61,770 nt of DNA, from the NCBI GenBank assembly GCA_964444705.1, contig CAYUHX010000005.1, positions 1 to 61,770 of the forward strand. Reading direction: 5' to 3'. A model generated the notes under the pieces. That model searched no databases and was not told the origin of the DNA. It saw nothing but the letters and a program-made list of their open reading frames with translations. Made by a program: the position numbers and the translations under genes. How positions within the stretch are numbered: position 1 is the stretch's first letter; every line of letters starts with the position of its first letter. This stretch comes from an uncultured Gammaproteobacteria bacterium (lineage in GTDB: Bacteria > Patescibacteriota > Patescibacteriia > Magasanikbacterales > GWA2-37-8). Shown piece after piece: positions 2,466-49,862 of the stretch.

Positions 2466-2474
2466 TGAAAGAAA

Positions 2475-3209: not shown

Positions 3210-3214
3210 AAAAA

Positions 3215-8070: not shown

Positions 8071-8076
8071 CAAACT

Positions 8077-8106: not shown

Positions 8107-8110
8107 TTAT

Positions 8111-8545: not shown

Positions 8546-8699
8546 AAATTAAAAAATTGAGAAATTATTCTATTTAATATTTATTTTTCGTATTGTTTTT
8601 TCGTTGCTCAATGTAAATGCAAAAAATGTGCTTAAATTTGGGTTTTTTGACAATATATCCTAATTTTGGGTTGGTAATTTTTATAACATTTTGCAAAAA

Positions 8700-9896: not shown

Positions 9897-9899
9897 ACG

Positions 9900-10982: not shown

Positions 10983-11021
10983 ACATCTTGAATTACAAAA
11001 ATGAGGAAACTGTTTGTAACC

Positions 11022-12951: not shown

Positions 12952-12952
12952 A

Positions 12953-14973: not shown

Positions 14974-14981
14974 ACGAGATT

Positions 14982-23091: not shown

Positions 23092-23975
23092 ACTTTTTCT
23101 CTAAATTGCTTAAGCCAAATACTCAGTCTGCCACCAAACTTTATTTCTGCCAAAATAATATATCGCACAAAACCAGAGTAATGTTTATTTACAAATAAAA
23201 TAAGGCTTTTTAAAAATAGTGCCAATCGCTCTGGACGATATTTACCTCTAAAACTCCCGCCATATACATGCATGAGCGGTGTAGTTGGCGCAACCACACA
23301 TTTCCAGCCTCGTGCGCGCAAACGCCAACACAAATCAGTTTCTTCAAAATACATAAAATAGTCTTCACTCAAAAAGCCTACTTCTTCTAATGCGGCACGA
23401 CGAAGTAAAAGAGCCGCACCAGTAACATACTCCACTTCTTTACCATCTGAAGGAATTTGCTGAGGGTAAAGGGCAAGTGAATGAAATTTTCTTTTTATGC
23501 TACTCGGCAAAAAATACCAGATTGGAAAAAGATACAAAAAAACATTTAATGGTCGAGGAAAATAACCTCCCACCGACTGCCATTTACCATCGGGGTACAC
23601 AAGCATTGGGCCACACGCCCCAACAGAAGGGTGTGTTTCCATAAAATTTAATAGCTCTTCAAGAACAGGCGGGGCAGTTTCGGTGTCGCTATTAAGTAAC
23701 CACACAAACGGTGTGGTGGAACGACGTACACCTTGATTATTCGCTTTTGCAAACCCTACATTTTCTTTGTTTTCAATTAAAATAACGTCAGGAAAATTTT
23801 TTTTCACCATCGTACCACTTCCGTCGATTGAGGCATTGTCTACGACTATTATTTCACGAGGAGTAACCGTAGAAGCTGAGAGTGCAACCAAAGTTCGTTG
23901 CAACAAATCAACCGTGTTGAAGCTAACAATAATCACCGTTACTGCAGTTTTATTTCCTCCGTTCATATAAATCAA
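23088..23975 (-). CDS. GT2 glycosyltransferase, WbbL/RfbF-like
   Basis: TVIIVSFNT, IIVVDNASIDGS, GFAKANNQG, LLNSDTE, MYFEETDLCWRL. Confidence 0.75.
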   Translation of the reverse strand: MIYMNGGNKTAVTVIIVSFNTVDLLQRTLVALSASTVTPREIIVVDNASIDGSGTMVKKNFPDVILIENKENVGFAKANNQGVRRSTTPFVWLLNSDTETAPPVLEELLNFMETHPSVGACGPMLVYPDGKWQSVGGYFPRPLNVFLYLFPIWYFLPSSIKRKFHSLALYPQQIPSDGKEVEYVTGAALLLRRAALEEVGFLSEDYFMYFEETDLCWRLRARGWKCVVAPTTPLMHVYGGSFRGKYRPERLALFLKSLILFVNKHYSGFVRYIILAEIKFGGRLSIWLKQFREKV

Positions 23976-25449
23976 ACTTCACCTTGAAAAAACCGATAGT
24001 TTTACGATACACAAAATCACGCTCGATAAGTGCACGGATTTTTTTCTCTGGATCTTTTTGCCATTCTAAAAATTGTGAATACCAAATGTACTCACGACCA
24101 TTAAGTGCCGTCTTTAAATACTCCGCAATGACCGAATAATCTTCAGGAAGCACACCGACAGGATAGGTGCTTACAACATCGATACGACCACGGCTATAAA
24201 GCGAAAAAGTAGGTGGTGGTTGGTTATATCCAATAAAAACGACAGCATCATTAGGTCGACTTTCGGCCTCAAGCTCTGGTACTACATATTTCCATGGCTC
24301 TCGCGCGTACCATGGATCACATACAAATAAAAGCAAAATGCTTATATGTGCCACCATCAATGCAAAAAGAGCTATGGATTGGAGTCGTTTTTTTTGTTCA
24401 GCCAAGGAAATAACAGCACTGGTTACAATAAGTAAAAAAAATGGAAAAATCTCAGCATAATAACGCGGATCAAAAACTGGAAAACGGATAACAGAAATAA
24501 AAAGTGAAATAGAAAATGGTCCCAGAAATAAAAAAAATACTTTTTCTACCCACACATCTCTTTTACGCTGCTTAAACCAGTAGTAAACAGCACTAAAAAG
24601 CACCGCAAAATACAAGCCAGCATTTAAAATAGTTGGCCAATAGTGATGCAGGTGATTAAGATCAGTAATCGCAACACGACCGCCTGTAAATCCAACAAAC
24701 ACAATAGCCGGAATTTGCCACCACGGGATAGCTAAAAAATGTCCAGGTTTTTCAGCTAAACGGTGTAGTAAAACTGCTCCAATCCAAGGAAGATACGCAA
24801 GGATAATCACCGTCCACGGCGTTAAGAAAGAAAGAATTTTTTTTCTTTGGATAAAAAAGAGATAGCAGGCTTCGGCAATGAGCGAAAAAATAAATGGATA
24901 AAAAAGATAAAGAGCGACAACTGAACTAAGTGTATAACCAATTTTTTGAAATTTTTTGGTAGAAAAAGATGATTCAGATGCTGATAATTCATCAAAATAC
25001 CAAAACCTCACCAAAGCTATGAGAACAACCGCCATGTAAGAACGCACTTCCGTGGCATAGTATAAGGCAAAAGGAGATGACAAAAATAGAACAAAACCAA
25101 CAAGATATGATTTTTTATTTAAAACCGGTGATGAAAATTTCTTTTTTACTACCGCAGCAAAAAGAAAACTACTGAGAACATAAAAGATTATACTCCACGC
25201 ACGATACATAAAAATCGGTGATCCCCACGGCGCCACCAAAGCGTGCAAAAAAAGATTATAGAGCGGTGGATGCAAATCACCCTGAGCAAGTTGCATGATT
25301 TGAGGTATTGAATAATGAGAAAATAAAATTGTAAGACCTTCATCAAGCCACACCGATTGTTGCAAGGATACGTACACCGCTAATACAAAAAAACTAAAAG
25401 CAATTGCATATTGCCAAAAGCGAGTGGTACTAAAAAAACTAAGCTTCAT
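23950..25449 (-). CDS. polytopic GT-C-fold glycosyltransferase (ArnT/PMT, GT39/83-like)
   Basis: 499 aa, more than 10 TM. Acidic first-loop motif SVWLDEG, a soluble C-terminal domain of about 110 aa, and placement directly downstream of a Dpm1-like synthase. Confidence 0.6.
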   Translation of the reverse strand: MKLSFFSTTRFWQYAIAFSFFVLAVYVSLQQSVWLDEGLTILFSHYSIPQIMQLAQGDLHPPLYNLFLHALVAPWGSPIFMYRAWSIIFYVLSSFLFAAVVKKKFSSPVLNKKSYLVGFVLFLSSPFALYYATEVRSYMAVVLIALVRFWYFDELSASESSFSTKKFQKIGYTLSSVVALYLFYPFIFSLIAEACYLFFIQRKKILSFLTPWTVIILAYLPWIGAVLLHRLAEKPGHFLAIPWWQIPAIVFVGFTGGRVAITDLNHLHHYWPTILNAGLYFAVLFSAVYYWFKQRKRDVWVEKVFFLFLGPFSISLFISVIRFPVFDPRYYAEIFPFFLLIVTSAVISLAEQKKRLQSIALFALMVAHISILLLFVCDPWYAREPWKYVVPELEAESRPNDAVVFIGYNQPPPTFSLYSRGRIDVVSTYPVGVLPEDYSVIAEYLKTALNGREYIWYSQFLEWQKDPEKKIRALIERDFVYRKTIGFFKVKFDLYERRK

Positions 25450-33050: not shown

Positions 33051-34859
33051 TTATTTCTTAAAAAGATACATTTTAAAGTAAGGCGTTTCCTCACGTAAGT
33101 CGTAGTGAGTAAGTTTAGGATAAAGAAAATTTTCAGCCACCACAATTGCGGGTTCAGTGGTTTTGAAAAAAAATATGGCATCATAATTCTGCTGCTGAAT
33201 GTCAGACAATAGTTCTTGTCGCGTAGAAGTAGAAAAGACAAAAAGTGGATTGGCAAAGCGAGAATAATTTGGCCGGTTGGCAATATAATATAACCCCGGA
33301 GCATCCTCAGAGACAATGAGTATTTTTGCAGATGTAGGCAATTCAGAAACACTCTCTTGAAAGGCATTAATAAGAGCAACTGTTTCGGGTGGAAAAAAGA
33401 AAGAAACCTGTGAATGAGAATCTCGCCAACGTTCAGTTCTTGTGGTGCTATGCACGTCAAAACGATAAAAGAAAAATGCCCATACAAGCACGCCTACAAG
33501 GCCATATAGCCCTACAATTCCCACTACCATCAAATGAAATGGATCATTTCGATTTTCAATAAACAAAAGATAGGCGGCCGGCAGCACAAACACTAACGTA
33601 AGCGATTCATATGCATACCCAGTTGCGCCACCAAGTGATTTAAAAAAATACCCCAAGGCAAGCATGATAAAAGAAAAAAGAACAAGCTCAAAAACAGTTA
33701 GGTGTTTAGTTTTAATAAAAGAGAGCAGCCATTTAATTGCCCAAAAAGAAAAAATACTTAACGGAAAAAGATAGAGATAAAATAAACCGCTAAACACCAA
33801 TTTACCAGCCCCGTCCAAGCTGTGTGTCATTAAAATTTTTTTTAAGAGAGGCCAAAAAATTGGTAGATTATACTCAACCAAGCCACCCACCACCGAACGA
33901 GCATATTGAAAAGAATTTTTAAAAAAAGGAGTGAGTGGAGAATAAAAAAAACACACACCGAGCAACGCATACCACGCAAAAATGATCCATTTTTTATTCG
34001 TAACAATGCCCTTTGTTTTTTCCGCATACCACAATATTCCCCACAAAATAAGCGCCAAAGCTTCGGCTACAATACCTGTTTCTGGAGATATTAAAAAAAC
34101 AAAAATCGGACTTACTTGACTCAAAATAAAAAAAATTGACGATCGGTATTCAAGTGCCAAAGCAGCAAAAAGTAAAGGTAAAAGTGCTGATAGTGGGCGC
34201 AAAAGGGTACCATGAATAGAGGCTGGACTAAAAAAAAGCGACTGAAATAAAATGATACTCCACACAATAAAAAAATATCTATTCCAAGTGTTCACTTTCG
34301 CCATCCGCAACGTCAGCCAGACAAAAAATAAAGCCAAACTATCAAGTGCTATTTTGAGTATTAAAGTAGCAATAACACTGTTGCCGAAAAGGAAGGTCAA
34401 CCCCCACGCACACACAATTGGTAAAAAACCATAGGGAAAATAAAAATGTACGTTTGGCCACAAACCATGCTGTATAGACACAATACTCCCCCAAAACAAA
34501 CCCTGTTCTCGCATGAATCCGGTTTCGCCAATTAAAGATAAAGTGGCATATCCTATCACAAAAGCAGTCAGAAAAAATAAAAAAAAGAACCACACTGCAT
34601 CACGTCTTAATTTAAAAGGTTTTTGAGCTGACAAAATTGAGACTGGTGCCAAAACTATTTTTTTTGGCTCGACAAATTTTTCATACCACACCAACAACAA
34701 TGCCACACTCCCTATATACCCATAGACAATCAATGGGTTGCGTGGGCTACTTGATAAAAATAAAATTAAAAAATGATGTGCAAAATAAAAAGGAATTACA
34801 GGCATGATCACACACAATGCTACCAATGATATTTTTTTTAGCAGCGTTTGATGAAACAC
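33051..34859 (-). CDS. large polytopic membrane protein with soluble C-terminal domain (possible GT-C-type transferase)
   Basis: 602 aa, about 13 TM, about 130-aa C-terminal soluble domain. GTG start. I recognise no diagnostic motif. The alternative-frame ORF 33035..33487 is spurious. Confidence 0.45.
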   Translation of the reverse strand: MFHQTLLKKISLVALCVIMPVIPFYFAHHFLILFLSSSPRNPLIVYGYIGSVALLLVWYEKFVEPKKIVLAPVSILSAQKPFKLRRDAVWFFFLFFLTAFVIGYATLSLIGETGFMREQGLFWGSIVSIQHGLWPNVHFYFPYGFLPIVCAWGLTFLFGNSVIATLILKIALDSLALFFVWLTLRMAKVNTWNRYFFIVWSIILFQSLFFSPASIHGTLLRPLSALLPLLFAALALEYRSSIFFILSQVSPIFVFLISPETGIVAEALALILWGILWYAEKTKGIVTNKKWIIFAWYALLGVCFFYSPLTPFFKNSFQYARSVVGGLVEYNLPIFWPLLKKILMTHSLDGAGKLVFSGLFYLYLFPLSIFSFWAIKWLLSFIKTKHLTVFELVLFSFIMLALGYFFKSLGGATGYAYESLTLVFVLPAAYLLFIENRNDPFHLMVVGIVGLYGLVGVLVWAFFFYRFDVHSTTRTERWRDSHSQVSFFFPPETVALINAFQESVSELPTSAKILIVSEDAPGLYYIANRPNYSRFANPLFVFSTSTRQELLSDIQQQNYDAIFFFKTTEPAIVVAENFLYPKLTHYDLREETPYFKMYLFKK

Positions 34860-34865: not shown

Positions 34866-34979
34866 TTAGAAATTATTATAAATAAAAATCTCTGAATTGC
34901 CAGTTGATGCTAATAAAATAGCTATAACAATGAGCGCAAGAAAAAAACCTATAATCAATTGTTTCGCCTTAACATACAT
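34866..34979 (-). CDS. 37-aa DltX-like microprotein (single TM plus C-terminal F-x-Y-x-x-F acyl-shuttle motif)
   Basis: Hand-translated: MYVKAKQLIIGFFLALIVIAILLASTGNSEIFIYNNF*. The ATG lies 8 nt after the MBOAT stop, and the TAA lies 6 nt before the next gene start. It is below the 60-aa cut-off of the ORF track. The C-terminus FIYNNF matches the DltX (DUF3687) terminal hexapeptide as I remember it. Confidence 0.6.
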   Translation of the reverse strand: MYVKAKQLIIGFFLALIVIAILLASTGNSEIFIYNNF

Positions 34980-34987
34980 ATTTTAAA

Positions 34988-36139
34988 TTAAAAAATTTTT
35001 TTCAAAATTAAAAAAGCATCATGTATATTTTCGGTAACAAAAAAAGACCAACCAATTGACACAAAACTAAATGTAAGCACACCTGATAAGATCTTTTTAA
35101 TAAAGCTGGAATTTTGCTGTGGTAAATAACGTTGAAAACATTTCTCAAGACACAACCCTAACCCATGCCATAAACCCCAAAGCGCAAACGTCCAGTTCGC
35201 ACCGTGCCAAAAACCACTCAATAAAAATGTAAATAAAATATTACGATACATCGCCATTTCACCTGTGCGGCTACCGCCCAGCGGAATATATACATAATCC
35301 TTAAACCATGACGAAAGAGATATATGCCAACGTTTCCAAAAATCAGTTAATGTAATACTTAGATATGGAGCGTTAAAATTCTGAGGAATATTGATTCCAA
35401 AAAGTAATGCACTTCCAATAGCAATATTGCTTAAACCAGCAAAATCAAAAAAAATTCGAAATGAATATACACATAATTGGCGCAATGCAGCCATTCGCGA
35501 ATAAAGTGTTATCGGATGTGCTAAATCAGTAGTGAGTGGCACCAGATTATCTGCAATAAGATATTTTTGCGCATACCCAAGTACGATAAGACTAACACCA
35601 TAATACAAAAATCGCGGTTCAAATACGATTTTTTCTAATTGTGGCTTAAATGATTCATAACGCTTTACTGGGCCAGACAATAAACTTGGGAAAAATAAAC
35701 TAAAACAAAGAAAATCTTTTAAACGAACATGTGAAATTTTTTGCTGATAGACATCAACCAAATAGTGTATAAATTCAAACGTAAAAAAAGAAATACCGAG
35801 CGGCATGACAATAGCACTAAAACCAACGCCAACACCAATTGAACGGAGTGTTGCCGTAAATAAAGTACCATACTTAAAATACAACAAAGTCAACACCAAA
35901 AAACAAACGGCAACAGCAAGATCAGAACGTCGCCGTGTGCGTACAATTTTTTTCGCGAAGAAAAAAACTATGGCAGCAAGTACGGCAACCTCAAAAAGCG
36001 ATCGTCCGCCATAAGAGGCATAAAAAATAATTCCAAAAATAATTAAAGCGTGCACTCGCCACTTCGCAGGAATACACCACCAATAAATACCAAGACTACC
36101 GACCAAAAAAACAAAATAAAGATAACTATTAAAAAGCAT
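34988..36139 (-). CDS. MBOAT-family membrane O-acyltransferase (DltB/AlgI/PatA-like)
   Basis: MLFNSYLYF start typical of AlgI/DltB. FWKRWHISLSSWFKDYVYIPLGG and the catalytic-His motif GFWHGANW. The ORF track starts at 36166; the ATG at 36139 is preferred. Confidence 0.85.
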   Translation of the reverse strand: MLFNSYLYFVFLVGSLGIYWWCIPAKWRVHALIIFGIIFYASYGGRSLFEVAVLAAIVFFFAKKIVRTRRRSDLAVAVCFLVLTLLYFKYGTLFTATLRSIGVGVGFSAIVMPLGISFFTFEFIHYLVDVYQQKISHVRLKDFLCFSLFFPSLLSGPVKRYESFKPQLEKIVFEPRFLYYGVSLIVLGYAQKYLIADNLVPLTTDLAHPITLYSRMAALRQLCVYSFRIFFDFAGLSNIAIGSALLFGINIPQNFNAPYLSITLTDFWKRWHISLSSWFKDYVYIPLGGSRTGEMAMYRNILFTFLLSGFWHGANWTFALWGLWHGLGLCLEKCFQRYLPQQNSSFIKKILSGVLTFSFVSIGWSFFVTENIHDAFLILKKIF

Positions 36140-37970
36140 ACGGCATATACTCGCGCAGGTGTGCAAACAAAATATCAGTAAAATAAACAGCGCCTTGTGA
36201 ATTTAAATGATGTGCATCTACAAACAAAGAAGTGGTTGACAGAGAGTGACTTAAATCAATACCGTTTTTTTCAAACACACCAATAATCTTAGTATTGTTA
36301 CCTACATAAAGAGGATCGCTCGCAAAAGAACCCAGCACCGCCGAGTTCTGAGGCATAAGATATGCCATAAATGTTGACGTCGCCTGCATAGCTCCATACT
36401 GTGCGAGCGCTTTTGTAAGACAAAAATTAATATGCTCTTCATCCAACAAATGATGTGCAAACACTTCTCCGGAAGATGTGGTTACTTCAGCTTGTGTCTG
36501 CAAGGCCTCTTCGGGGCTTACCAATGCTGAAAACGAAGGTTTCGTGCCTTTAGCCAGTTCCATAAACATTTTAAATAATTCTTGCAATACCTGAGAAAAA
36601 TGTTTTTTAAAAAAGAAATAGTTAATATCATCTTTATACGTAAGTAGTGGCAGTGCACGGAGAAAAAAAGATTCGATTTTTTTTTCAAGCGTTGGTGCAA
36701 AAAAATGATCAAGACCTTTTTTTTGAAGACACGTATCAGCTTCAGGAGTAATAATGCCGTCATGGGCATACGTTTCTTCGGCCAGTGCTTTTATACGAAT
36801 AAAAGCACTAGGGTCAGTGGATGCAGTTTGGTTGAATTCCGGTTCGTAAAATTGATAGTTTATATCAGTCACCACTACATCAGCTTTGCCTTGTAGACGT
36901 TTGAGAAGGAGGAGTATATCAAGTGGCCGCCCAGCATTAAGCGCAAGGTTGTACACGCTCCAGCGTGAAGAATCTAGTTTTTTGGAAAATAAAAAAGGAA
37001 TAGTATCTTGATAATTTTTTAAGGTCGAACCCCAAAGCACGCTGCCGCCCAAAAATACAATCTTCTTTTTTGGATCGTGTTCAATAGCAGAAATAGTCGC
37101 ATTAATTTGTCGCAAGGAGGGGTTGTAGCGCAGACGCGGCCCCACCAAATTAGATTCTTTTCCATGAAATGCCACAAAAGCTGCACTATTTGCACATACG
37201 AAAAAAAACAATGCCCAAATAAAAATTTTCAAATCACCCCAATGTTTTGAAGGAAAACGACCTTGTTTTTTGTGCAAAAAATTTTTGAAAGTGGTGTATT
37301 CAATGATCATTTGCGACAAAATAGAGCGCCCATCTTTCATCACTCGTATTTTTGAGCCTGCTCGCGGCGTATCATATTGTACGGGAATTTCTACTACAGA
37401 AAGACCGCTTGCCTCACCATACATAATGAGTTGCGTACAAAAAAAAGCATCATTCGCAGTCGCGTGTGGCAACAATGGAATAATTCGTTCTTTTCTAAAA
37501 AGCAAACTACCTTGCGTATCACCAGCTGAAACTGAAAAAAACAAACGGAGTAAATAATTAAAACAAAAAGAAACAAACTTACGTTTAAAAGGGGCGTGAT
37601 TAATGCTTTTTGAATGAGCCTTAGAACCAATAATAATATCAGCCTCAGTTGCTTTCGCAAGCGAATTACCGATTATTTCAAAACCAAACGGCACGTCGAT
37701 GGCATAGAACATTACTAGCGAAAAACGTGCAGCAAGAATGCCTGCTCGAATTGCTCGACCCAATCCTTTTTCAGACAACCGTACATACTGAATCTCGCTA
37801 CTTTCAAAAGATGCCATGATTTTTTCAGTATCATCAGTACTGCCATTATCAATAATAATTATTTCAAAAGAAATACCTTGTGCTGCAAGATATTCTTTGG
37901 TACGAAGAAGTGTATGCGGTAAAATCTCAGCTTCGTTATATACCGGATAAAGCAAGCTCAAACCTTCCAT
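36129..37970 (-). CDS. fusion protein: Dpm1/GtrB-like GT2 domain, one TM, extracytoplasmic DltD/SGNH-like acyltransferase domain
   Basis: aa 1-230: YPVYNEAEIL, IIIIDNGSTDDT, GLGRAIRAG. aa ~245-270: TM (IFIWALFFFVCANSAAFVAF). C-terminal domain: KKIVFLGGSVLWGS (Ser block) and LFVDAHHLNSQG (Asp-x-x-His block). Confidence 0.65.
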   Translation of the reverse strand: MEGLSLLYPVYNEAEILPHTLLRTKEYLAAQGISFEIIIIDNGSTDDTEKIMASFESSEIQYVRLSEKGLGRAIRAGILAARFSLVMFYAIDVPFGFEIIGNSLAKATEADIIIGSKAHSKSINHAPFKRKFVSFCFNYLLRLFFSVSAGDTQGSLLFRKERIIPLLPHATANDAFFCTQLIMYGEASGLSVVEIPVQYDTPRAGSKIRVMKDGRSILSQMIIEYTTFKNFLHKKQGRFPSKHWGDLKIFIWALFFFVCANSAAFVAFHGKESNLVGPRLRYNPSLRQINATISAIEHDPKKKIVFLGGSVLWGSTLKNYQDTIPFLFSKKLDSSRWSVYNLALNAGRPLDILLLLKRLQGKADVVVTDINYQFYEPEFNQTASTDPSAFIRIKALAEETYAHDGIITPEADTCLQKKGLDHFFAPTLEKKIESFFLRALPLLTYKDDINYFFFKKHFSQVLQELFKMFMELAKGTKPSFSALVSPEEALQTQAEVTTSSGEVFAHHLLDEEHINFCLTKALAQYGAMQATSTFMAYLMPQNSAVLGSFASDPLYVGNNTKIIGVFEKNGIDLSHSLSTTSLFVDAHHLNSQGAVYFTDILFAHLREYMPYAF

Positions 37971-37975: not shown

Positions 37976-38500
37976 TTAAAGCCCTATTTTTTCAACGATT
38001 TTTCCCGCTTCATTTACTCGCGCAATTAAACGAGCAGGGTTTCCAACAACCAAACCAAAGTCAGGCACATCTTTAGTGACCACCGAACCTGCACCAACCA
38101 TTGCAAATCTACCAATCGTAACACCTGGCAAAAGCACCGAATGCGCCCCGATTGACGCACCATATTTAATGGTAACACCTTCCACCTGCCAATCATCAGC
38201 TTCTTTGAGGGCACCTTCAGGAGTGATGGCACGCGGTATTTTATCGTTGGTAAGCACCACGTGTGGCCCTACAAATACACCGTCTTCAAGTACTGCACCA
38301 TGATACAGCGAAGAATTATTTTGAATTTTACAATTTTTTCCCACCATTACCTCAAAATCAATATATACATTTTTTCCAACAATCGTATTATCACCAATAT
38401 GGACACTTTCTCGCACTTGAACCAAATGCCATATTTTTACCTCTTCACCGACATGAACATTGTCGGCTATAAGTGCGCTTGGATGAATAAAATAGGGCAT
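37976..38500 (-). CDS. left-handed beta-helix N-acetyltransferase, WbpD/WlbB-like
   Basis: IHPSALI..VHVGEEVKIWHLVQV..KIQNN.S.Y.GV.LEDGVFVGP..VLTND...VGAGSVVTKDVPDFGLVVGNPAR matches the WlbB/WbpD pattern from memory. Confidence 0.75.
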   Translation of the reverse strand: MPYFIHPSALIADNVHVGEEVKIWHLVQVRESVHIGDNTIVGKNVYIDFEVMVGKNCKIQNNSSLYHGAVLEDGVFVGPHVVLTNDKIPRAITPEGALKEADDWQVEGVTIKYGASIGAHSVLLPGVTIGRFAMVGAGSVVTKDVPDFGLVVGNPARLIARVNEAGKIVEKIGL

Positions 38501-38506: not shown

Positions 38507-39466
38507 TTAGTAAGAGGCAATTTTAAGTGCCTCAATGGCATATGACGGATCAAAAGAACCACCTTCAATAACCAGACCAATAAAAAAAGATAATTCTTCT
38601 TTCAGCGGCTCCTTTTTGGCTACTGAAATAACTATTTTATCTGGATCAGAAAAACGTAAAATATAATCAGAAAAATCACCGATCTGCTCTTTAAATTTTT
38701 CAAAGTTACTTTTGTAAAATTCAATTTGCTGAGTAACATAATCCATTTCTAAATAACCGTTTGAACCAGTAATAGTAAGCTTCCGAATCTTAACTGGCGT
38801 AATCCAATTTGCCTGAATGTACGCAGAAGCGCTGTGATATTTGAGAAAAAATTCAACTGCGTCTTCGCGCTGCTCAATATGATTTTTTTCTTTATGCACC
38901 ATAATTTCCTGCGGCAACTCACCTAAAAGATAATTCACTACATCAATATCATGAATCGCGAGATCAACTGCAATATTTGCATCTTTAATTTGTGGAGGAA
39001 ATCCTCCCACACGTCGAGCGATAAGTGCCGTAATTTTTCCGAGCTCACCTTTGTCAATTAATTCTTTTACCTTGCGTACAGCAGGATTAAAACGCTCAAT
39101 ATGACCCACACACAACAATCGATTTTTTTCTTGCGCAATTTCAGCTAATTGCTGTGCTTCTACGACGTTGAGAGTGATTGGTTTTTCAACGAGCACATGC
39201 ACCCCTGCCCGAAGACAATAAGCTGCTACTGCAAAATGATGAGCTGTCGGCACGCAAATTGAAACTAATTCAGGGCACTCTTTCTCAATCATCTCTTGAT
39301 ATGAAGCGTATGTCGGCAGATTAAATTCTGTTCCTACCTGGGTTCGAAGCACATCACTAATATCAGAAACAGCCACAAGTTCTACTTCGGGCAACTGGGC
39401 ATACGTGCGTACGTGGTTTTTTCCCATATTCCCCACACCGATAACCGCACATTTAGGTCGAGGCAT
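38507..39466 (-). CDS. Gfo/Idh/MocA-family NAD oxidoreductase, WbpB/WlbA/GnnA-like sugar 3-dehydrogenase
   Basis: KCAVIGVGNMGKNH Rossmann motif, VLVEKP motif, placement between the DegT and LbH genes. Confidence 0.7.
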   Translation of the reverse strand: MPRPKCAVIGVGNMGKNHVRTYAQLPEVELVAVSDISDVLRTQVGTEFNLPTYASYQEMIEKECPELVSICVPTAHHFAVAAYCLRAGVHVLVEKPITLNVVEAQQLAEIAQEKNRLLCVGHIERFNPAVRKVKELIDKGELGKITALIARRVGGFPPQIKDANIAVDLAIHDIDVVNYLLGELPQEIMVHKEKNHIEQREDAVEFFLKYHSASAYIQANWITPVKIRKLTITGSNGYLEMDYVTQQIEFYKSNFEKFKEQIGDFSDYILRFSDPDKIVISVAKKEPLKEELSFFIGLVIEGGSFDPSYAIEALKIASY

Positions 39467-40568
39467 ATTTTTTTACTGCATCAATAATACAATCTAAATC
39501 AGTGGTTGAAAGCGATGGATGTACTGGCAACGACAACACTTCCTTCGCTGCTTGTTCGGCAACAGGAAACGTGCCTATTCCTTGATTAAGGAAAGCAAAA
39601 TGTGGGTACAGATGCAATGGTTTTGGATAGTATACCCCAGAACCAATATTCAGCGTGCGAAGATATTCAAACAATCCGTCACGAGAATGTTCAGAAAGAT
39701 TTGACACTCGAATCGTAAATTGATGAAACACGTGTTGATTTTCTTTTCGAATAGATGGCAGTGTTATTCCTGGAAGATCAACCAAACCCGCGGCCAAATG
39801 CATGGCATTCGATCTTCTTTTCTCATTAAGATTATCCACTTTTTTTAACTGCTCAAAAGCAATAGCTGCTTGCATTTCATTTAATCGATAATTATACCCT
39901 AACGCTTGATAATCATAACGCCCGACTTCAGACTGTCCTTGATTACGAAACATGCGTGCACGACTGGCATATTCTTCACTATTCGTCACCACCATTCCTC
40001 CTTCGCCGCACATAATATTTTTAGTGGCATAGAGCGAAAACACACCGCAATCAGCAAGTGCACCAGTTTTTTGGCCAAACTGTGTAGCACCAATACTTTG
40101 GCAGGCGTCTTCAAGAAGTGCCAGATGATTTTTTTCGGCAATTTTTTTTAACGCTGTATAGTCTGCAGCTTGCCCATATAAATCAACAGCCAAAATGGCT
40201 TTGGTTTTGGGAGTGATTTTTGCTTCCACTTCTTTGGGATCAAGATTAAAATTGTCAGGCGAAATGTCGGCAAAAACCGGTCGTGCACCTTGCATTAAAA
40301 TGGCGTTCGCCGTGGCCACAAAAGTAAATGGAGTAGTAATTACTTCGTCTCCCCGATCAATGCCTGCTGCATAAAGAGCCGTATGAAGACCAGCAGTACC
40401 ATTATTTATCGCCACCGCATAATGAGTGCCGCAATATGCCGACCACGCCTCTTCAAGAGCTTTCACTCGCGCCCCCTGAGCCAATTGACCAGATTGAAGC
40501 ACCGCGGTCGCAGCTGCAATTTCTTCCTGTCCAATAATTGGTTTACAAACAGAAATCATAGAATACAT
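39453..40568 (-). CDS. DegT/DnrJ/EryC1/StrS-family PLP aminotransferase, WbpE/WlbC-like
   Basis: QGARVKALEEAW, and FSLYATKNIMCGEGGMV with the PLP lysine present. 371 aa. TAATG junction with the radical-SAM gene. Confidence 0.8.
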   Translation of the reverse strand: MYSMISVCKPIIGQEEIAAATAVLQSGQLAQGARVKALEEAWSAYCGTHYAVAINNGTAGLHTALYAAGIDRGDEVITTPFTFVATANAILMQGARPVFADISPDNFNLDPKEVEAKITPKTKAILAVDLYGQAADYTALKKIAEKNHLALLEDACQSIGATQFGQKTGALADCGVFSLYATKNIMCGEGGMVVTNSEEYASRARMFRNQGQSEVGRYDYQALGYNYRLNEMQAAIAFEQLKKVDNLNEKRRSNAMHLAAGLVDLPGITLPSIRKENQHVFHQFTIRVSNLSEHSRDGLFEYLRTLNIGSGVYYPKPLHLYPHFAFLNQGIGTFPVAEQAAKEVLSLPVHPSLSTTDLDCIIDAVKKYAST

Positions 40569-42025
40569 TACACACCTACAGCCTGAACAGTTGTTTTGGC
40601 CGCTCGTTTTTGTTTAAGTTCTAAAAGTTTGTGCGCTGCCCATTCAGCTACTCTTTTTAATCCCATCATATGCAATACTTCTTTTCCAAAAAAAAGAACG
40701 TAATTTTTGAAAGAGTATTCATTTTTAAGATCAATAATTTTGGTGCGATTGCGCACGGCTTGGGTAAAAATAAATAAACGAAATTTAGAAAACACACTAA
40801 AATCTGCTTTGTACGATTTATTACTGAGCCAAAAATCGTCTTTCATATAACCATCACGCACCGCCTGATTATAATACATCGTGCCAGGCACCATAAGAAG
40901 CCCACCAGCAGTAGAAAAACTATCTGGATCAACAGCATTCAAAAAATCAATAGTTTCATTAATGGTTTCAGGAGTTTCTTTAGGTGACCCCACAATCATA
41001 AGTGCGTGAAATTTAAGTCCCACACGCTTTACTAACTGCAACGTTTTTTTCATTTGTTCGGCATCTACCTCTTTATTAAATTCATCGAGAATGGTTTGAG
41101 AACCAGTTTCAACGCCATAGGCAATATTATAACAACCAGCATCGCGAAGTTTTATAAGCAAATACTCTTCACTGATCACATCAACGCGTGAAGACACTAA
41201 AAAGGCAATTTTAATGCCCGAGCGAATGATTTCGTCGCAGAAAATTTCTAATTCTTTTTTATTGACACCAAAACAATCATCACGAAATTCAAAATTACGC
41301 ACACCGTAGCGCATATACAAATCGTGAATTTCTTTAAACATGGCAAGACCGCTTTTAGTGCGCCATTTTTGCCACACCCACCAGAGTGCACAATATTTAC
41401 ACGACCCAGGACAGCCTCGCGAAAAACGCACTGGTACCGTTACCTCACGGCTAAGATCAATGCCATTATACACTCCCTCGCCTTTGGGGTAATGTGTAAA
41501 ATCAATTAAATTCCAAGCCGGAGCGCCAAGAACATCTAAATTTTTCTCAGGCACCCGATCATTATTTTTTACTACTTTACCCTCACGACGATAAGCAATG
41601 CCAGGGATACTATTTAACTCTTTTTTTTCTGCCAGGTCAGCCAAGGTGTATTCACATTCGCCAATGGTGCAGATATCAATTTGAGGAATGTGTGTTAAAA
41701 CGTGGTGCCACATGGTGGTGGTTTGCGAATCGTTGTTAAATACAGTGCCGGCGACCACGAGCATGGTAGGGTTATATTTTTTAATTTTTTTGATTATTTT
41801 TAATGCATGAACCCGATTCATGGAATAATACGCCACTAACACAAAATCAAACCCCTTTAAAGTTTCTGCGGTAAATGGAATTTTAGGATTATTCAAAAAA
41901 TCAAGAATGACCACTTCGTGGCCGCGACTTTGCAAAAAACCAGCTGATTCAAGTAATTCCAAAGGTGGCCCAAGCAAGGCAAACTGCTTAACACTGTCTG
42001 GTCTTATAAAAAGAAGTTTCGACAT
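40568..42025 (-). CDS. class B (cobalamin-binding-domain) radical SAM enzyme
   Basis: N-terminal B12-binding-like Rossmann domain (VVILDF.., FDFVLVAYYS, MLVVAGTVF), then RFSRGCPGSCKYC (CxxxCxxC) and a TIM-barrel core (IAYGVETGS). Confidence 0.75.
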   Translation of the reverse strand: MSKLLFIRPDSVKQFALLGPPLELLESAGFLQSRGHEVVILDFLNNPKIPFTAETLKGFDFVLVAYYSMNRVHALKIIKKIKKYNPTMLVVAGTVFNNDSQTTTMWHHVLTHIPQIDICTIGECEYTLADLAEKKELNSIPGIAYRREGKVVKNNDRVPEKNLDVLGAPAWNLIDFTHYPKGEGVYNGIDLSREVTVPVRFSRGCPGSCKYCALWWVWQKWRTKSGLAMFKEIHDLYMRYGVRNFEFRDDCFGVNKKELEIFCDEIIRSGIKIAFLVSSRVDVISEEYLLIKLRDAGCYNIAYGVETGSQTILDEFNKEVDAEQMKKTLQLVKRVGLKFHALMIVGSPKETPETINETIDFLNAVDPDSFSTAGGLLMVPGTMYYNQAVRDGYMKDDFWLSNKSYKADFSVFSKFRLFIFTQAVRNRTKIIDLKNEYSFKNYVLFFGKEVLHMMGLKRVAEWAAHKLLELKQKRAAKTTVQAVGV

Positions 42026-43538: not shown

Positions 43539-44840
43539 TTATTTGGTCGGAAATGGCTGTGTTTTTAATAAATAGAACGAACAGGCCATAGTATAACATT
43601 GTGAGACTCCAATGCCAACAAGAAAAGTAAGGCCAGCGCCAAAACTGCCATAACGTGGAATAAGGACATAACTGAGCCCTATATTAAGCAATAATTGAAG
43701 GAAGCCAGAAAAAGCTATCAGTTCGGTACGATTAAAGACGGTGATAATGAGTCCAAGCGGCGCCGCCAAAAAATTTATAAGCATACTATAGCTGAGAAGC
43801 AAATAAATGGGGAGTGACTGTGCATATTTCATACCAAACAACCAGCGCACCACATATTGACTAGGATAAATAAACAGTGCGACCAAAACCGTGGTTGGCA
43901 CGAGCCAGCGCATTATTTTTTTCACAAACAGCCACACCTCTGGCACAGTAGTGAGTGCGTTTATTTTGGGTGTTAACACTGCAGTGATTGATTGCAAAGC
44001 CAGCGAATAGACAAACACAAACTGAAAGGCCACTGTATAAGTTGCCACCTCTTCCAGCCCCAAAAAACGACTGAGCATAGCCTGATCAATTCGACTCGCC
44101 ACAATTGCCGACAACGACCAAATGGTGAGCCAAAAACTAAACCGGAGCAAAGTGTGATGAAGTTGTTTTTTTGAAGCAGAATCAATTTTTACCTTAGAAA
44201 ACGAAGCTGGCAATACCCGCACGGTGACAAGAAAAAGAATCCAAGGAATGCCAATATAGACCGAAAGATAGACAAAAATATTGTGCACCCCCGTCATAAT
44301 AAGCCCAACAACAAACAGTAATCGCACCAGCCCTTTGGCCGATTGTATTGTGGCATTATACAAAAATTGTTGCGTGGCTTGAAGATATGTAGTAACAAAC
44401 CCCAAGAGTACCACCCCTCCCACGCCCAAAAAAGAAAATGCTATGTAAGGCGCGAGTACGGGCTGTTTAAAAATACCATTCGCAATAACTCCGCTTAACA
44501 CCACACCACCCACCGTCAAAAGGACAGAAAGTCCTACTCTCCATTGCCAAATGGTTTTTACGAGCTGTTTAAGTTTTATCTCTTCTTTAAGACCGAGATA
44601 AAGCGGCACAAATCGAAGCAATCCACCATTGAGACCTAAATCAGAGAGTTCTGCCACGGTACTTAAAGCAATTAAAGAAAGTGAAAAAATTCCAAATGCT
44701 GTTTTTTCAAGCGAACGTCCGAGCACTACATTGATTAAAAACAACGATATACCATTTAAAAGCGCACCACAATATACATACAGTACTTCTCGCGCCGACT
44801 TCGTGTGCAACATTTTATTGATTGTGTTAATTAACCACAT
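43539..44840 (-). CDS. wzx: Wzx-type (MOP superfamily) lipid-linked oligosaccharide flippase
   Basis: About 12-14 TM with polysaccharide-biosynthesis-protein-type topology. The ORF-track start at 44846 is TTG; the ATG at 44840 (MWLINT..) is preferred. Confidence 0.65.
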   Translation of the reverse strand: MWLINTINKMLHTKSAREVLYVYCGALLNGISLFLINVVLGRSLEKTAFGIFSLSLIALSTVAELSDLGLNGGLLRFVPLYLGLKEEIKLKQLVKTIWQWRVGLSVLLTVGGVVLSGVIANGIFKQPVLAPYIAFSFLGVGGVVLLGFVTTYLQATQQFLYNATIQSAKGLVRLLFVVGLIMTGVHNIFVYLSVYIGIPWILFLVTVRVLPASFSKVKIDSASKKQLHHTLLRFSFWLTIWSLSAIVASRIDQAMLSRFLGLEEVATYTVAFQFVFVYSLALQSITAVLTPKINALTTVPEVWLFVKKIMRWLVPTTVLVALFIYPSQYVVRWLFGMKYAQSLPIYLLLSYSMLINFLAAPLGLIITVFNRTELIAFSGFLQLLLNIGLSYVLIPRYGSFGAGLTFLVGIGVSQCYTMACSFYLLKTQPFPTK

Positions 44841-46305
44841 ATGCAATACATCTCCATTTAAAAACTAAAATAAGCGGATAGACGGTAATAGTTAAAAAAA
44901 TACACCAAAAAAAAGACAAATGTGACACATTGTTATGTGCCAATGCTTGCCAGACATAAAAACCAAGTGGAGCTATACCAAGGAATAAGACAAAACGATC
45001 GAAGAGAATCTCATCATAAATCACGAAAAGAACACCTAGTAGGGGTAGAACCCACGCTCCATACCAAGGCCAAAATGATTTTTGCCATACAAACAGGAAT
45101 ACCAATAAAGTGATGAGAATAGCTGTAAAAAATCTCTGTGACGACCAATGAACACGATGACGAAAAATTAACCATGCTTCTTTCGCCAAAGGCCACAACA
45201 AAAAACTTGCAATACACACCACCATACCGTGCACCAATCCGGTAAGTAGTAGATGTGAAAATGTAACTCCAAGTGCTTGACTGATAAATTCTAATGAATA
45301 ATAAAAGGTTGCAAAGAGACTAGACACCGCCCATTTTGATTGCGTTATTAATGTATCAAATACTCTTAGCCCTACCCAATATGGCCGCCATGCAACAAAA
45401 GTAACAAGAAAACTTAAAAAAAATCCCAGACCCAACTGCACAATCTGCCGTTGCCAGTTTGTTTTTTTTATTTCTTGCCACCACCAAAGTAAAAACCACG
45501 GAACGAGCAATACGGGAATAAACTTAACCCATACACCTAGCGCAAGCAAAGGAAATACAAGCCACCAGTGGTGTTTTTTTGCAGCAAGAAAAGAACCACT
45601 TAACGCCAAAAGCCATACACTATCAAAATGTCCATTCACTATCCATTCCCACAACAATAACGGCTGTAAAAACCATATTTTTTGGATATATAATCGACGT
45701 TCTGAAGTTAAAAAATCGTCATTAAAAAAAACATGTTCAATAACGTAACCCAAAACTACGAACATAAAAACCATGAAGGTTTTCCATAAAAAAATAAACC
45801 ACCACATTGAACCACTGCTTATATAATAAGCAATTTTAAACAAATCAATCGCAAGTGGTCCATACATACTTCCGTACGTAAAACTTGATTGTGGTGGAGA
45901 AAAAAAAGGATTTTCCAAAAGCCATGAATTCGTATAAAGATTTTTACCACCCGCAGCTGCTTTACCGCTGCTGAAATAATATTCAATATCTCCTGAAGAG
46001 AACGGCACTACTAAAAACGCACACAACACAACAAAAAAAATCATTTTTTTATGACCTCCAACAAAAAAATTATTGTCCTTATTTTTAGAGAAAAAAAACC
46101 AAAGAGCACTTATACATACGATAAAGATTCCAATTAGGCCCGCACGGATATAGTCATTGAAAGGCACACAGGTTGGCCAGGCGGAAAGAAAATAACACTC
46201 TTTCTGACTAAGGAAATGAAAAAAAATAATGGGGGTTACCAAAGCGGCACTTCCCCACCCCACCAAACCTAACCACAACGCCCATTTACAGATGAAGCGT
46301 TTCAT
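44827..46305 (-). CDS. polytopic membrane protein, GT-C-like (DUF2029/GT87-like mannosyltransferase type)
   Basis: 492 aa, more than 12 TM and Trp-rich loops (WVKFIPVLLVPWFLLWWW). Sits in a module with a Dpm1-like synthase and a methyltransferase. Confidence 0.5.
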   Translation of the reverse strand: MKRFICKWALWLGLVGWGSAALVTPIIFFHFLSQKECYFLSAWPTCVPFNDYIRAGLIGIFIVCISALWFFFSKNKDNNFFVGGHKKMIFFVVLCAFLVVPFSSGDIEYYFSSGKAAAGGKNLYTNSWLLENPFFSPPQSSFTYGSMYGPLAIDLFKIAYYISSGSMWWFIFLWKTFMVFMFVVLGYVIEHVFFNDDFLTSERRLYIQKIWFLQPLLLWEWIVNGHFDSVWLLALSGSFLAAKKHHWWLVFPLLALGVWVKFIPVLLVPWFLLWWWQEIKKTNWQRQIVQLGLGFFLSFLVTFVAWRPYWVGLRVFDTLITQSKWAVSSLFATFYYSLEFISQALGVTFSHLLLTGLVHGMVVCIASFLLWPLAKEAWLIFRHRVHWSSQRFFTAILITLLVFLFVWQKSFWPWYGAWVLPLLGVLFVIYDEILFDRFVLFLGIAPLGFYVWQALAHNNVSHLSFFWCIFLTITVYPLILVFKWRCIAYVVN

Positions 46306-47792: not shown

Positions 47793-49862
47793 TTATTTAA
47801 CTGTTGAAGAAATCGGAGTGGTGCTATTAATTCCAATTTGCTTCAAGATGTTTTTTTCTTGATCTGTAAATAAAACTTCATTCTTTTTCGCCAAAAGCAT
47901 TACCTCATCCACTTTTGGTAACTGTTGAGTAATCTTATATACATATGCTAACCGCCAATAACTTTCAGCAATACGTGGATTATCTGAAATGGCTGCCTCA
48001 AGAAGCTTCACCGCATCTTGCCATTTGCCCAGTTGAGCCTTCACTCCCACCAAATTATAAACAAGCTGTTGTCGACGCGGAGAATAAGCCAGCGCTTGTT
48101 CTAAATAAAATTCACTTTTTGCAAGATACTTGGGATCATTATTAATAAGAAGACCAAGCTGCATTAGTTGCGACAAGCTCAAATGAACACGAACATCAAG
48201 TGGGTGAAGTACCAAATTTTTTTCCAACTCGAGAATCATAAGATCCAAAATTTGATTACTTTTTTCTTTACCTATTTTTTGATAATTATTACTGAGTAAG
48301 CTATATACTCCACGACTAATATCATTACGAATATCATCAATATGAGGAGAACTAAAAGCCAACGCCTCTTGCATGGAAATAAACGCTTCATTTGGATTTT
48401 GTCCCAAAGCTACAAGAGTATGTAATGTTTTAGTATTGGCCCGCGCAGGTTGCAGGTTAAAAATAAATACCGCACAAAAACCTACCACCCCCAAAACTAC
48501 GAGTGTTCCAGTTCCACACACCGCATCAGCTGACGCAGGTATAATTTTTTTAAGCACATCTTCCTTGAGAGAAAAAGTGGATGATTTATAAGAAACGCTA
48601 TTTATAAAAGCAAGCCAAAACATGAAGTATAAATACGAGGTTGGGTTTTCAAATACTGTGATATTTTGTACTAAATGTGCAATCAAAAACACACTTCCAA
48701 TCACCAGCATGTGGGCATCAATCGTTTTCTTGGCATATGCTGAGTAGAGAATCCAAATTGCCACCACAAAAATGGCTATATAGGTCACAAGGCCGATTAC
48801 ACCCTGCACAGCCAATGTATTCACTAAAATGTTGTGTGCATTATCAAACCAAGTTTCACTATAGCCAAACTCGAGCGAACGAGGGTTATAATGCTGATTG
48901 AACGCATAGAAAAAATTATTTGGTCCCCAACCAAACAAAGGGTGGTCTTTAAAACTTTCTAGGGCAATCTTCCAAGCGATAATGCGAGGACCACCAACCA
49001 ATTCGTTCAATGAGGTATTAAAAGTACGGTCAAGAATCACCACGCGATGAACAAAATTTGAATCTCGATTAAAAAACAGCAACACCACAAGCGCAACGAG
49101 GACTCCCCCACTAATCCAAAGTGTATGACGTACCCTTGGATATTCTTTTAACACAAAAGAATACACAGTTACACCATACATAATACCAGCCACAAGCCCC
49201 AGCATAGAGCCGCGAGTGCCACTAAACACCAAACCTAATAGCGCCAACACCCCCGCCAAAGCATACACAATTTTTCTTCCAATTGTTTTTTCTTTTAGAA
49301 GAAGAAGGCACGAAACAGCAGTCAAAAAAAGTCCATAACCACCGACATAAATTGAATTACCAAGACTACTCGCTACCCGCAAACTACCTTGATTCAAAAG
49401 TAAATCCGGCAAAAATACCTGCAACACACCAATAGCCATCACAACCGAACCAGCAATCAAAAAAATATTCAAAGCTCTCTTCCAGTCAGCCCAGTTTTTA
49501 AAAAGGCTAGTTATCATGAGGTAATACACTACGTAATGAGCTAGGGTAAAAAGTCCTAACATACGCTCATGATTGTCCCAAAAACTATGATATGAATCAA
49601 CGCCAAAAAAAGTAGACAGTAAAAAACTAACTAAAAAAAGAACAACTGCAATGGTCAAGTTTGTTCTCTTTGGCACATATTCCTTCCAGTTGATAATTAA
49701 AAGTCCGCAGTATCCCGCACACATGAGCTCAACCAATGAACGAAATACTAAAATTTTAGGGACAATAAAAGGAAAAATAAATGATGAAGGAAATACTAAT
49801 AATGGTACAAAAAAAGTACCATATGCTAAAATTTTTAGACAAGTTTCGAGAATTTTTTTCAC
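47793..49862 (-). CDS. O-antigen ligase/polymerase-family (Wzy_C) membrane protein with C-terminal TPR domain
   Basis: About 11 TM. SGTRGSMLGLVAGI and WFDNAHNILVNTLAVQG (Wzy_C hallmarks). The C-terminal ~250 aa have TPR-like repeats (..EQALAYSPRRQQLVYNLVGV..AISDNPRIAESYWRLAYVY). GTG start. Confidence 0.75.
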   Translation of the reverse strand: MKKILETCLKILAYGTFFVPLLVFPSSFIFPFIVPKILVFRSLVELMCAGYCGLLIINWKEYVPKRTNLTIAVVLFLVSFLLSTFFGVDSYHSFWDNHERMLGLFTLAHYVVYYLMITSLFKNWADWKRALNIFLIAGSVVMAIGVLQVFLPDLLLNQGSLRVASSLGNSIYVGGYGLFLTAVSCLLLLKEKTIGRKIVYALAGVLALLGLVFSGTRGSMLGLVAGIMYGVTVYSFVLKEYPRVRHTLWISGGVLVALVVLLFFNRDSNFVHRVVILDRTFNTSLNELVGGPRIIAWKIALESFKDHPLFGWGPNNFFYAFNQHYNPRSLEFGYSETWFDNAHNILVNTLAVQGVIGLVTYIAIFVVAIWILYSAYAKKTIDAHMLVIGSVFLIAHLVQNITVFENPTSYLYFMFWLAFINSVSYKSSTFSLKEDVLKKIIPASADAVCGTGTLVVLGVVGFCAVFIFNLQPARANTKTLHTLVALGQNPNEAFISMQEALAFSSPHIDDIRNDISRGVYSLLSNNYQKIGKEKSNQILDLMILELEKNLVLHPLDVRVHLSLSQLMQLGLLINNDPKYLAKSEFYLEQALAYSPRRQQLVYNLVGVKAQLGKWQDAVKLLEAAISDNPRIAESYWRLAYVYKITQQLPKVDEVMLLAKKNEVLFTDQEKNILKQIGINSTTPISSTVK

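Follow-up and report, generated by a model that had tools for sequence, protein, structure and literature searches.

Contig CAYUHX010000005.1, a stretch of 61,770 nucleotides (nt) with a GC content of 39.7% that is referred to here as the window, carries on its minus strand three adjacent genes, encoding a 613-aa protein in which a GT2 domain is fused to an SGNH domain, a short-form MBOAT acyltransferase and a membrane microprotein of 37 aa (Table 1). The last 11 nt of the first of these open reading frames (ORFs) overlap the ATG of the MBOAT gene, and the micro-ORF, which translates as MYVKAKQLIIGFFLALIVIAILLASTGNSEIFIYNNF, starts 8 nt past the MBOAT stop and ends 6 nt ahead of the GTG that opens the next ORF. 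An initial annotation of the DNA had proposed that a minus-strand ORF ending in FIYNNF fills this gap between the MBOAT gene and the next gene, and such an ORF is indeed present. In this annotation the three genes were read as an acyl relay of the kind known from the Dlt system, and it is this reading that is evaluated here.

Table 1. Positions of the genes, domains, codons and neighboring features in the window. TM, transmembrane helix; AF2, AlphaFold2.
Feature	Position	Strand	Basis or remark
37-aa membrane microprotein (micro-ORF)	34866..34979	(-)	ATG to TAA; conserved ORFs in L001, L002, L003, L012, L013
Codon of putative acyl-accepting Tyr34	34878-34880	(-)	
Short-form MBOAT acyltransferase, 383 aa	34988..36139	(-)	Start ATG 36139, judged from homologues
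Codon of putative catalytic His312	35204-35206	(-)	In GFWHG
613-aa fusion protein	36129..37970	(-)	GT2 + one TM + SGNH
Predicted cytoplasmic GT2 domain, about aa 1-230	37281-37970	(-)	Pfam GT2
Predicted single TM, about aa 246-268	37167-37235	(-)	Between GT2 and SGNH domain
Predicted extracytoplasmic SGNH domain, DltD-like fold, aa about 270-613	36132-37162	(-)	AF2 model and Foldseek
Codon of predicted catalytic Ser310	37041-37043	(-)	SGNH domain
Codon of predicted catalytic Asp585	36216-36218	(-)	SGNH domain
Codon of predicted catalytic His588	36207-36209	(-)	SGNH domain
602-aa polytopic membrane protein with C-terminal soluble part	33051..34859	(-)	Called as 584 aa; directly downstream of micro-ORF
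Hexapeptide acyltransferase	37976-38500	(-)	Pfam
GFO/IDH/MocA oxidoreductase	38507-39466	(-)	Pfam
DegT aminotransferase	39453-40568	(-)	Pfam
B12-binding radical SAM enzyme	40568-42025	(-)	
~495-aa protein	23950-25449	(-)	No Pfam match
~495-aa protein	44827-46305	(-)	No Pfam match
Large Wzy_C protein, C-terminal TPR	47793-49862	(-)	O-antigen ligase/polymerase
Large Wzy_C protein, C-terminal TPR	50036-52267	(-)	O-antigen ligase/polymerase
1268-aa ORF	52381-56187	(-)	No Pfam match
tRNA-Pro (GGG)	7757-7831	(+)	
tRNA-Pro (CGG)	7997-8071	(+)	

The microprotein gene and its conservation

The microprotein has a basic N-terminus (K4, K6), a hydrophobic stretch of 22 residues corresponding to a single transmembrane (TM) helix, and a short tail, SEIFIYNNF, which places an F-x-Y-x-x-F motif directly before the stop codon. 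Three stop-terminated FxYxxF strings occur in the six reading frames of the window, and only the copy in the micro-ORF is preceded by a hydrophobic helix. A phmmer search of 1.84 billion proteins with the 37-aa peptide gave no match, as is expected with a query so short, and a sequence search of the PDB with a microprotein profile gave nothing but a spurious match to an ExbB TM. The 613-aa protein has very few relatives (seven among 5.8 billion proteins), and their contigs show the same module. Five related loci contain a micro-ORF of 36-39 aa ending in FIYN[NH]F, which in three of them directly follows the MBOAT gene, namely in L001 (MFKARNILLGLLFAIGICILMLFTKGVSEVFIYNNF), L003 (MFEIKNIIWGLALALIVSLLILFSTGSSEVFIYNNF) and L002 (MFKFRNIFVGLILACIVTLLMLASTGNSEVFIYNHF), the last of these being missing from the gene calls. 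In L012, a metagenome-assembled genome (MAG) that is the closest species-representative genome, the micro-ORF (...SSEVFIYNNF) lies 4 kb downstream, and in L013, a Peregrinibacteria MAG, it (...TSDMFIYNNF) lies just upstream of the MBOAT gene. That a Peregrinibacteria MAG shares the FIYNNF type of the window is the sole hint at the CPR-like origin put forward in the initial annotation. The closest relative found of the window MBOAT is that of L002 (52% identical), while the best MBOAT among species-representative genomes is 44% identical.

When the window is compared with the five related micro-ORFs (n = 6), the last eleven codons vary synonymously (GGC, GGG or GGT for Gly; TCA, AGT, TCT, AGC or TCG for Ser, using both TCN and AGY; GAG or GAA for Glu; and also those for Phe, Ile and Asn), and such variation over the motif is a signature of selection on the peptide. 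Residues G27, S29, F32, I33, Y34, N35 and F37 are invariant among the six aligned micropeptides and the sequence of the helix is variable. The micro-ORF is a real, conserved gene encoding one TM helix and a terminal F-I-Y-N-x-F, and the conservation of the ORF and of its terminal Tyr in syntenic loci, on which the initial annotation depended, holds in all five related loci.

Split and fused MBOAT loci

The MBOAT of the window is a short, DltB-like form in which FWKRWHISLSSWF (residues 267-279) and GFWHG (residues 309-313) occur as first described, with the putative catalytic His312 kept, and its C-terminus is without FxYxxF. It is a clear member of Pfam MBOAT PF03062 (2.8e-32, 112.8 bits against a cut-off of 27). 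Its assignment as a DltB-type protein holds in structure, where the closest solved entries are those of DltB (6bug and 8jem, E 1.4e-33) and GFWHG is aligned on the GFWHG of 6bug, but not in sequence classification, as its score on the DltB equivalog TIGR04091 is 195.8 bits, where 375 are required.

An MBOAT scan of species-representative genomes and metagenomes provided 160 more loci and, with L001-L003, 161 were evaluable. The MBOAT is long in 118 loci, with an extension of 70-100 aa, a region that has been described as two helices (PMC12148441), ending in FxYxxF (mostly FIYFQF), and no convincing TM micro-ORF lies within 4 kb; three TM-like extra hits by these fused loci (one in L071 and two in L106) were read as the tails of paralogous long MBOATs. 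Plasmid-borne long MBOATs of Bacillus, Vescimonas and Leptospira share the fused FxYxxF ending. The remaining 43 loci have a short MBOAT with no terminal motif, and in 40 of them a TM micro-ORF ending in FxYxxF is found nearby. It is usually downstream and no more than 300 nt away, the distance from the MBOAT stop to the end of the micro-ORF being 110-270 nt in most of the 40, but its position varies and it is upstream of the MBOAT gene in L013 and L107. Two of the three short MBOATs that lack a micro-ORF are on contigs ending within 170 nt of the MBOAT gene, and the third is in L092, which is considered below. Over the 40 loci and the window, the motif is FIYIDF in 22 micro-ORFs, FIYNNF in 5, FIYTDF, FIYVDF and FVYIDF in 3 each, FAYVDF in 2, and FIYNHF, FVYVDF and FIYIAF in one each, such that the Tyr and both Phe are invariant in 41 of 41 while the TM helix is freely variable.

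Genomes with split loci are spread over about ten phyla, and those of Paenibacillus, Cystobacter, Verrucomicrobiae, Actinomycetota, Planctomycetota, Chthonomonadales, Abditibacterium, Sericytochromatia, Syntrophomonadaceae and Peregrinibacteria are among them. In a neighbor-joining tree a single clade holds all 26 full-length split MBOATs and not one of the fused ones, and the window MBOAT is placed in this clade, apart from the four DltB sequences, which make up a separate long branch. A related SGNH-like gene adjoins the MBOAT gene in 27 of 43 split versus 5 of 118 fused loci. The combination of a split MBOAT and a micro-ORF is common across phyla and not unique to this genome. Non-Dlt MBOAT/SGNH operons have been said, by the group behind the shuttle model, to be without dltX-like genes and to carry the motif fused to the MBOAT (PMC12148441), and a 2026 paper still regards DltX as a Gram-positive Dlt feature. 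The window locus and the 43 split loci contradict the generalization that only Dlt uses a separate microprotein. Literature searches found nothing on 'DltX-like' proteins outside Dlt, with Schultz et al. (2023) known only through a later paper of the same group, nothing on MBOATs in candidate phyla, and FkbH with MBOAT only in two unrelated natural-product papers.

The GT2::SGNH fusion, the glycan locus and the acyl donor

The proposal that the 613-aa protein is a three-part fusion of GT2, TM and a DltD-like domain was borne out. Only its N-terminal GT2 domain matches Pfam (1.7e-14, 54.5 bits); the best NCBIfam matches of this domain are to ArnC-type proteins (7e-10), dolichyl-P-hexose transferase and PpgS, all far under the cut-offs, and the proteins homologous to it in the databases are GtrA or PMT fusions. 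The C-terminal part contains KKIVFLGGSVLWGS at residue 302 and LFVDAHHLNSQG at residue 582, and its Ser and DxxH are conserved. The protein and its SGNH domain are unmatched by Pfam DltD (PF04914), a PDB sequence search with the SGNH domain gave nothing, and a metagenome scan with the SGNH-domain alignment found no relatives. With an AlphaFold2 (AF2) model of the C-terminal 354 residues, built from an 8-sequence alignment (pLDDT 76.6, pTM 0.76), the top four Foldseek matches in the PDB are all DltD (6pfx and 3bma, from E. faecium and S. pneumoniae; probability 1.0 over about 375 aligned columns, with E between 4e-4 and 1.5e-3), followed by TesA and other SGNH hydrolases. The likeness to DltD that the initial annotation had suggested therefore exists at the level of structure and not at that of the Pfam family.

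A broader, 28-sequence profile of the SGNH partners in split loci reaches all four real DltD proteins among the 8 of a targeted search, at 27, 21, 15 and 11 bits, with its DxxH block aligned on the E-D-x-x-H-L block of DltD, and this points to remote homology rather than membership. Near-invariant in the 28 partners, which come from many phyla, are G308, S310, N341, P540, F583, D585, H588, G593 and L601, and these columns take in SGNH blocks I, III and V. Sequence and model together predict a DltD-type architecture, in which an SGNH fold with conserved Ser, Asp and His follows an N-terminal TM anchor. The window and L001 (41% identical) have the GT2 and SGNH parts in one protein, and L002 and L003 have them as separate genes, those of L003 being adjacent and overlapping; the fusion is therefore real but confined to one lineage, and is not general to the module. 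The standalone SGNH-like proteins of L003 and L004 (P0003 and P0004) have a weak precomputed match to Pfam PF27429 'LB_356', which may be a family of SGNH proteins that accompany MBOATs, its name being taken from a Leptospira gene.

The surface-glycan setting claimed for the module was likewise confirmed, as amino-sugar, glycosyltransferase and Wzx/Wzy-type genes surround it. The hexapeptide acyltransferase, oxidoreductase and aminotransferase genes form a sugar-nucleotide trio that also precedes the module, with its gene order unchanged, in L001, L002 and L003 and, judged from the families encoded, likely makes an N-acylated amino-sugar handled by the GT2 domain. The 602-aa protein on the other side of the module has no Pfam or NCBIfam match and its single-sequence AF2 model (pLDDT 46) is unusable. 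Homologues turned up in L001 (32%) and L003 (31%) and nowhere else; each lies on the downstream side of the micro-ORF, that of L003 directly adjacent to it. The protein is presumably a GT-C-like transferase of the same pathway. Further genes of the locus encode an AsnB-like amidotransferase, many GT2 and GT1 enzymes and a Wzx-like flippase. The radical SAM gene is just upstream of that for the DegT aminotransferase and occupies the same place in L003. The 1268-aa ORF follows the two tandem Wzy_C proteins, and the L001 counterpart of the second ~495-aa protein (44827-46305) has a precomputed match to the MptA_B_family (GT-C mannosyltransferase-like) and lies beside a Wzx-like gene. The two tRNA-Pro genes of the window are 165 nt apart.

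The claimed absence of DltA and DltC also stands. Neither of these, nor FkbH or ACPS, was found in the 61.8-kb contig by Pfam searches of almost all ORFs of at least 110 aa, tblastn, custom hidden Markov models (HMMs) and a look at the small ORFs that occupy the larger gaps between genes, and the contig contains no AMP-binding or PP-binding gene of the kind that a dltXABCD operon would include. What had been concluded from this, that the module is carrier-less and its donor therefore an acyl-CoA, is possible but unproven, both because the window is one contig only and because three split loci do encode carriers. In L002 an ACPS-FkbH-ACP-MaoC-SDR cassette (7856-11335) comes immediately after the micro-ORF, in L012 the same cassette (11220-15058) lies between the MBOAT gene and the micro-ORF, and in L039 FkbH and ACP genes (1423-3553) are about 4 kb upstream of the MBOAT gene. 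The carrier proteins (77 aa in the L002/L012 cassette) pass Pfam PP-binding at 24-35 bits. FkbH and ACP are present within about 10 kb in 3 of 44 split loci, and in none of the window, L001 and L003. The gene content of these cassettes suggests that the donor is a glycerate-derived acyl group borne by a carrier protein, and their position beside the modules indicates that the split subfamily can use a carrier protein, as DltB does. The window module could draw on acyl-CoA as its donor, or on a carrier protein whose gene lies in another part of the genome. A DltC-like small carrier is encoded within 10 kb of four long, fused-motif MBOATs (L049, L117, L132 and L163), so that an equation of the fused motif with an acyl-CoA donor may not hold generally.

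The L012 cassette, which is next to the split MBOAT, contains a further small protein. Between its FkbH and ACP genes (about 13555-13686, plus strand) is encoded a 43-aa peptide, MWSFLKIRKKWWLAPIIIILFLFATLLVFAQTSPLAPFIYTLF, that matches Pfam DUF5989 (71.6 bits) and has an F-x-Y-x-x-F terminus. DUF5989 may represent a second, catalogued but uncharacterised family of Tyr-motif microproteins; a literature search found no mention of it.

A proposed split acyl relay, its alternatives and known systems

From what is directly established, namely the reality and conservation of the gene, the domain identities, the conserved catalytic residues and the co-occurrence statistics, we infer the covalent steps, topology, donor and acceptor of a relay. 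By analogy, there is a good likelihood that the products of the three neighboring genes act as a split MBOAT-SGNH acyl relay by which an extracytoplasmic glycan is esterified. As in Dlt and PatAB, the short MBOAT, at His312, would accept the acyl group of a cytoplasmic thioester and pass it to Tyr34 in the outward-facing FIYNNF of the microprotein, which would thereby take the place of the motif and C-terminal helices found in cis in most bacterial MBOATs. The acyl-Tyr would then donate to Ser310 of the membrane-anchored SGNH domain, with a putative Ser-Asp-His triad and Asn oxyanion hole, and the SGNH domain would transfer the group to a sugar hydroxyl. The positive-inside rule, applied to a peptide that is basic at its N-terminus, and the lone TM that separates GT2 from SGNH suggest this topology. 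On this view the window has, in adjacent or overlapping genes, all three parts of the bacterial MBOAT-SGNH acyl-shuttle systems (Schultz 2023; Anderson 2025), namely an MBOAT with its His, a C-terminal FxYxxF on the outside and an SGNH transferase with its Ser. Since the SGNH domain is fused via its TM anchor to GT2 and the 602-aa protein follows, the acceptor is probably the locus's own sugar, either as loaded by the GT2 domain on polyprenyl phosphate or within the polymer that receives it. The surface-sugar locus would thus probably use a Dlt-like Tyr shuttle relay in a non-Dlt setting.

Several results weigh against this reading. The microprotein is unmatched by Pfam DltX PF12459 at E<=10 and by NCBIfam DltX at E<=1, and an HMM of the 41 micro-ORFs has little similarity beyond the motif to either DltX or the tails of long MBOATs, so that homology of the micropeptides to DltX or to the MBOAT tails is not demonstrable. 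The TM-score of the SGNH model to DltD in Foldseek is only 0.45, and a narrow 8-sequence SGNH profile showed no similarity to DltD (hhalign probability 0.5%). No TM micro-ORF with a terminal FxYxxF lies within 4 kb of the short, split-type MBOAT of L092 (6879-8081), which is flanked by an HlyD-like gene and a RelA/SpoT-like gene and is the sole clear exception among the split loci. When small alignments of the microprotein and of real DltX were compared by hhalign, a probability of 49.6% (E 1.7e-4) was obtained over 24 columns, the score being driven by the helix and the motif.

How far the likeness to Dlt extends was judged against four annotated dltXABCD operons from plasmid records, in which DltX (n = 4) has 45-49 aa, always ends in FIYNEF and scores 57-73 bits on Pfam DltX. 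It is very improbable that the window encodes part of an ordinary Dlt system for the D-alanylation of teichoic acid, with dltA and dltC elsewhere in the genome, even though FIYNNF is one position apart from FIYNEF and DltB and DltD are the closest solved structure and the closest fold. The initial annotation had put the peptide forward for a match to the DltX family (there called DUF3687), and the result was negative in the same scan in which the real DltX proteins were recovered; ten representative split-type micropeptides reach at most 14.5 bits, none of them above threshold. The failure of the MBOAT to reach the DltB cut-off, its separate clade, the lack of a Pfam DltD match, the FkbH and ACP rather than DltA and DltC in the donor cassettes of relatives, and the position of the genes within an amino-sugar, glycosyltransferase and Wzx/Wzy-type locus all argue against such a system. 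The micro-ORF is almost certainly neither a product of chance in an AT-rich gap nor what a frameshift has left of a long MBOAT, and both explanations were rejected on comparative data. Although the GC content is 39.7% and codons for F, I, Y and N are AT-rich, first-order Markov simulations gave an expected 0.005 ORFs with a TM and FxYxxF per window, and a separate ORF, of variable spacing and position and with synonymous variation, recurs in the five related and 40 of 43 split loci. A frameshift is further contradicted by the single TM helix encoded in 37 aa, compared with the 70-100-aa extension of long MBOATs.

More weight must be given to the possibility that the same relay is carrier-dependent, its donor being an acyl-S-ACP whose synthesis is encoded in another part of the genome (an FkbH-loaded glycerate-derived acyl group, for instance) and not an acyl-CoA, which would make the system a closer parallel to DltB-DltC than was at first assumed. 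This is suggested by the cassette that directly follows the micro-ORF in L002, the closest relative found, by the same cassette in L012, by the FkbH and ACP genes of L039, by the scores of the small carriers above the PP-binding threshold, and by the use of a carrier by DltB, since no further short MBOAT is known whose microprotein is separate. It is nonetheless somewhat unlikely, as no ACP, FkbH, ACPS or AMP-ligase is encoded in the contig, none is found in L001 and L003, and the FkbH-ACP pair is near so few of the split loci. Less likely still, and improbable overall, is a purely structural microprotein that completes the MBOAT bundle or tethers the SGNH domain while the acyl group passes from the MBOAT straight to the SGNH Ser or to the glycan, without an acyl-Tyr. 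DltX does also hold DltB and DltD together (PMC12148441), but an invariant Tyr and Phe pair in a peptide whose TM helix varies, and the catalytic role of the same motif in DltX and PatA, favor a split relay in which Tyr34 is acylated.

The wider reading, put forward tentatively, with nearly as much chance of being right as wrong, is that there is a broad, apparently undescribed non-Dlt clade of 'split' MBOATs in about ten phyla, with unannotated Tyr-motif microproteins of ~35-45 aa (FIYIDF, FIYNNF, FIYTDF and the like) and, usually, an SGNH partner that is related to that of the window and DltD-like in fold, that in the sub-lineage of the window a fusion couples lipid-linked sugar synthesis to acylation on the outside, and that sister loci use an FkbH-loaded ACP as donor. 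The acyl-Tyr shuttle, whose chemistry is established for DltX and PatA (PMC12148441), is the current model for moving acyl groups across the membrane onto envelope polymers. If the wider reading is correct, the FkbH-ACP of the sister loci would place a glycerate-derived ester, rather than acetyl or D-alanyl, on a surface glycan. Split versus fused architecture is no simple proxy for a carrier-protein versus an acyl-CoA donor. The GT2::SGNH fusion and the FkbH-ACP cassettes point to uncharacterised glycan modifications in poorly known lineages, and the micro-ORFs to a class of functional genes that is largely unannotated, as no curated model recognizes them and that of L002 was not called. Tractable examples of the split system are available in cultured bacteria (Paenibacillus and Cystobacter, for instance Paenibacillus sp. 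LjRoot153 and Cystobacter fuscus).

Among known systems, the GT2 part of the module, a putative polyprenyl-phosphate-sugar synthase, may have its counterparts in GtrA/GtrB/GtrC, CsbB/GtcA/YfhO and ArnC/ArnT, where a GT2 of that type is followed by a large polytopic membrane protein, and in L001 a GtrA-family gene is nearby, as in three-component extracytoplasmic glycosylation. The window differs from these in that its GT2 is fused to an extracytoplasmic acyltransferase domain and its 602-aa protein is of no recognizable family. PatA/PatB, AlgI/AlgJ/AlgX, WssH/WssI and PatA1/B1 resemble the module in combining an MBOAT, an FxYxxF Tyr motif and an SGNH partner, and in being non-Dlt, glycan-modifying systems without DltA or DltC and with probable acyl-CoA donors. 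In these, however, the motif is on two extra TM helices of the MBOAT, is mostly FIYFQF and is accompanied by no microprotein, whereas in the window it is on a separate gene, and the SGNH domain of the window is closer to DltD than to the DHHW or DUF1574 partners found beside long MBOATs.

With DltX/DltB/DltD of Gram-positive bacteria the module shares a short MBOAT that does not itself end in the motif and a microprotein of ~40 aa, encoded by a gene of its own, that has one TM and closes with F-I-Y-N-x-F. Also common to both are an SGNH protein that is anchored by a TM and lies outside the cytoplasm, with, as predicted here, the DltD fold and a Ser/Asp/His triad, and genes that are adjacent or overlapping. 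The module differs in being without DltA or DltC, in having a peptide, MBOAT and SGNH domain that are outside the curated Dlt models, in a peptide that is shorter than DltX (36-39 versus 45-49 aa) and without its N-terminal K-T...Y region, in its gene order (SGNH-MBOAT-peptide versus X-A-B-C-D), in the fusion of SGNH to GT2, and in its glycan locus versus a teichoic acid context. As judged from sequence, the module is one that probably works like Dlt and yet is not a member of the Dlt family. Hence it is not a new mechanism, and what is new is a probable non-Dlt split relay of MBOAT, microprotein and SGNH protein, here with a GT2 fusion.

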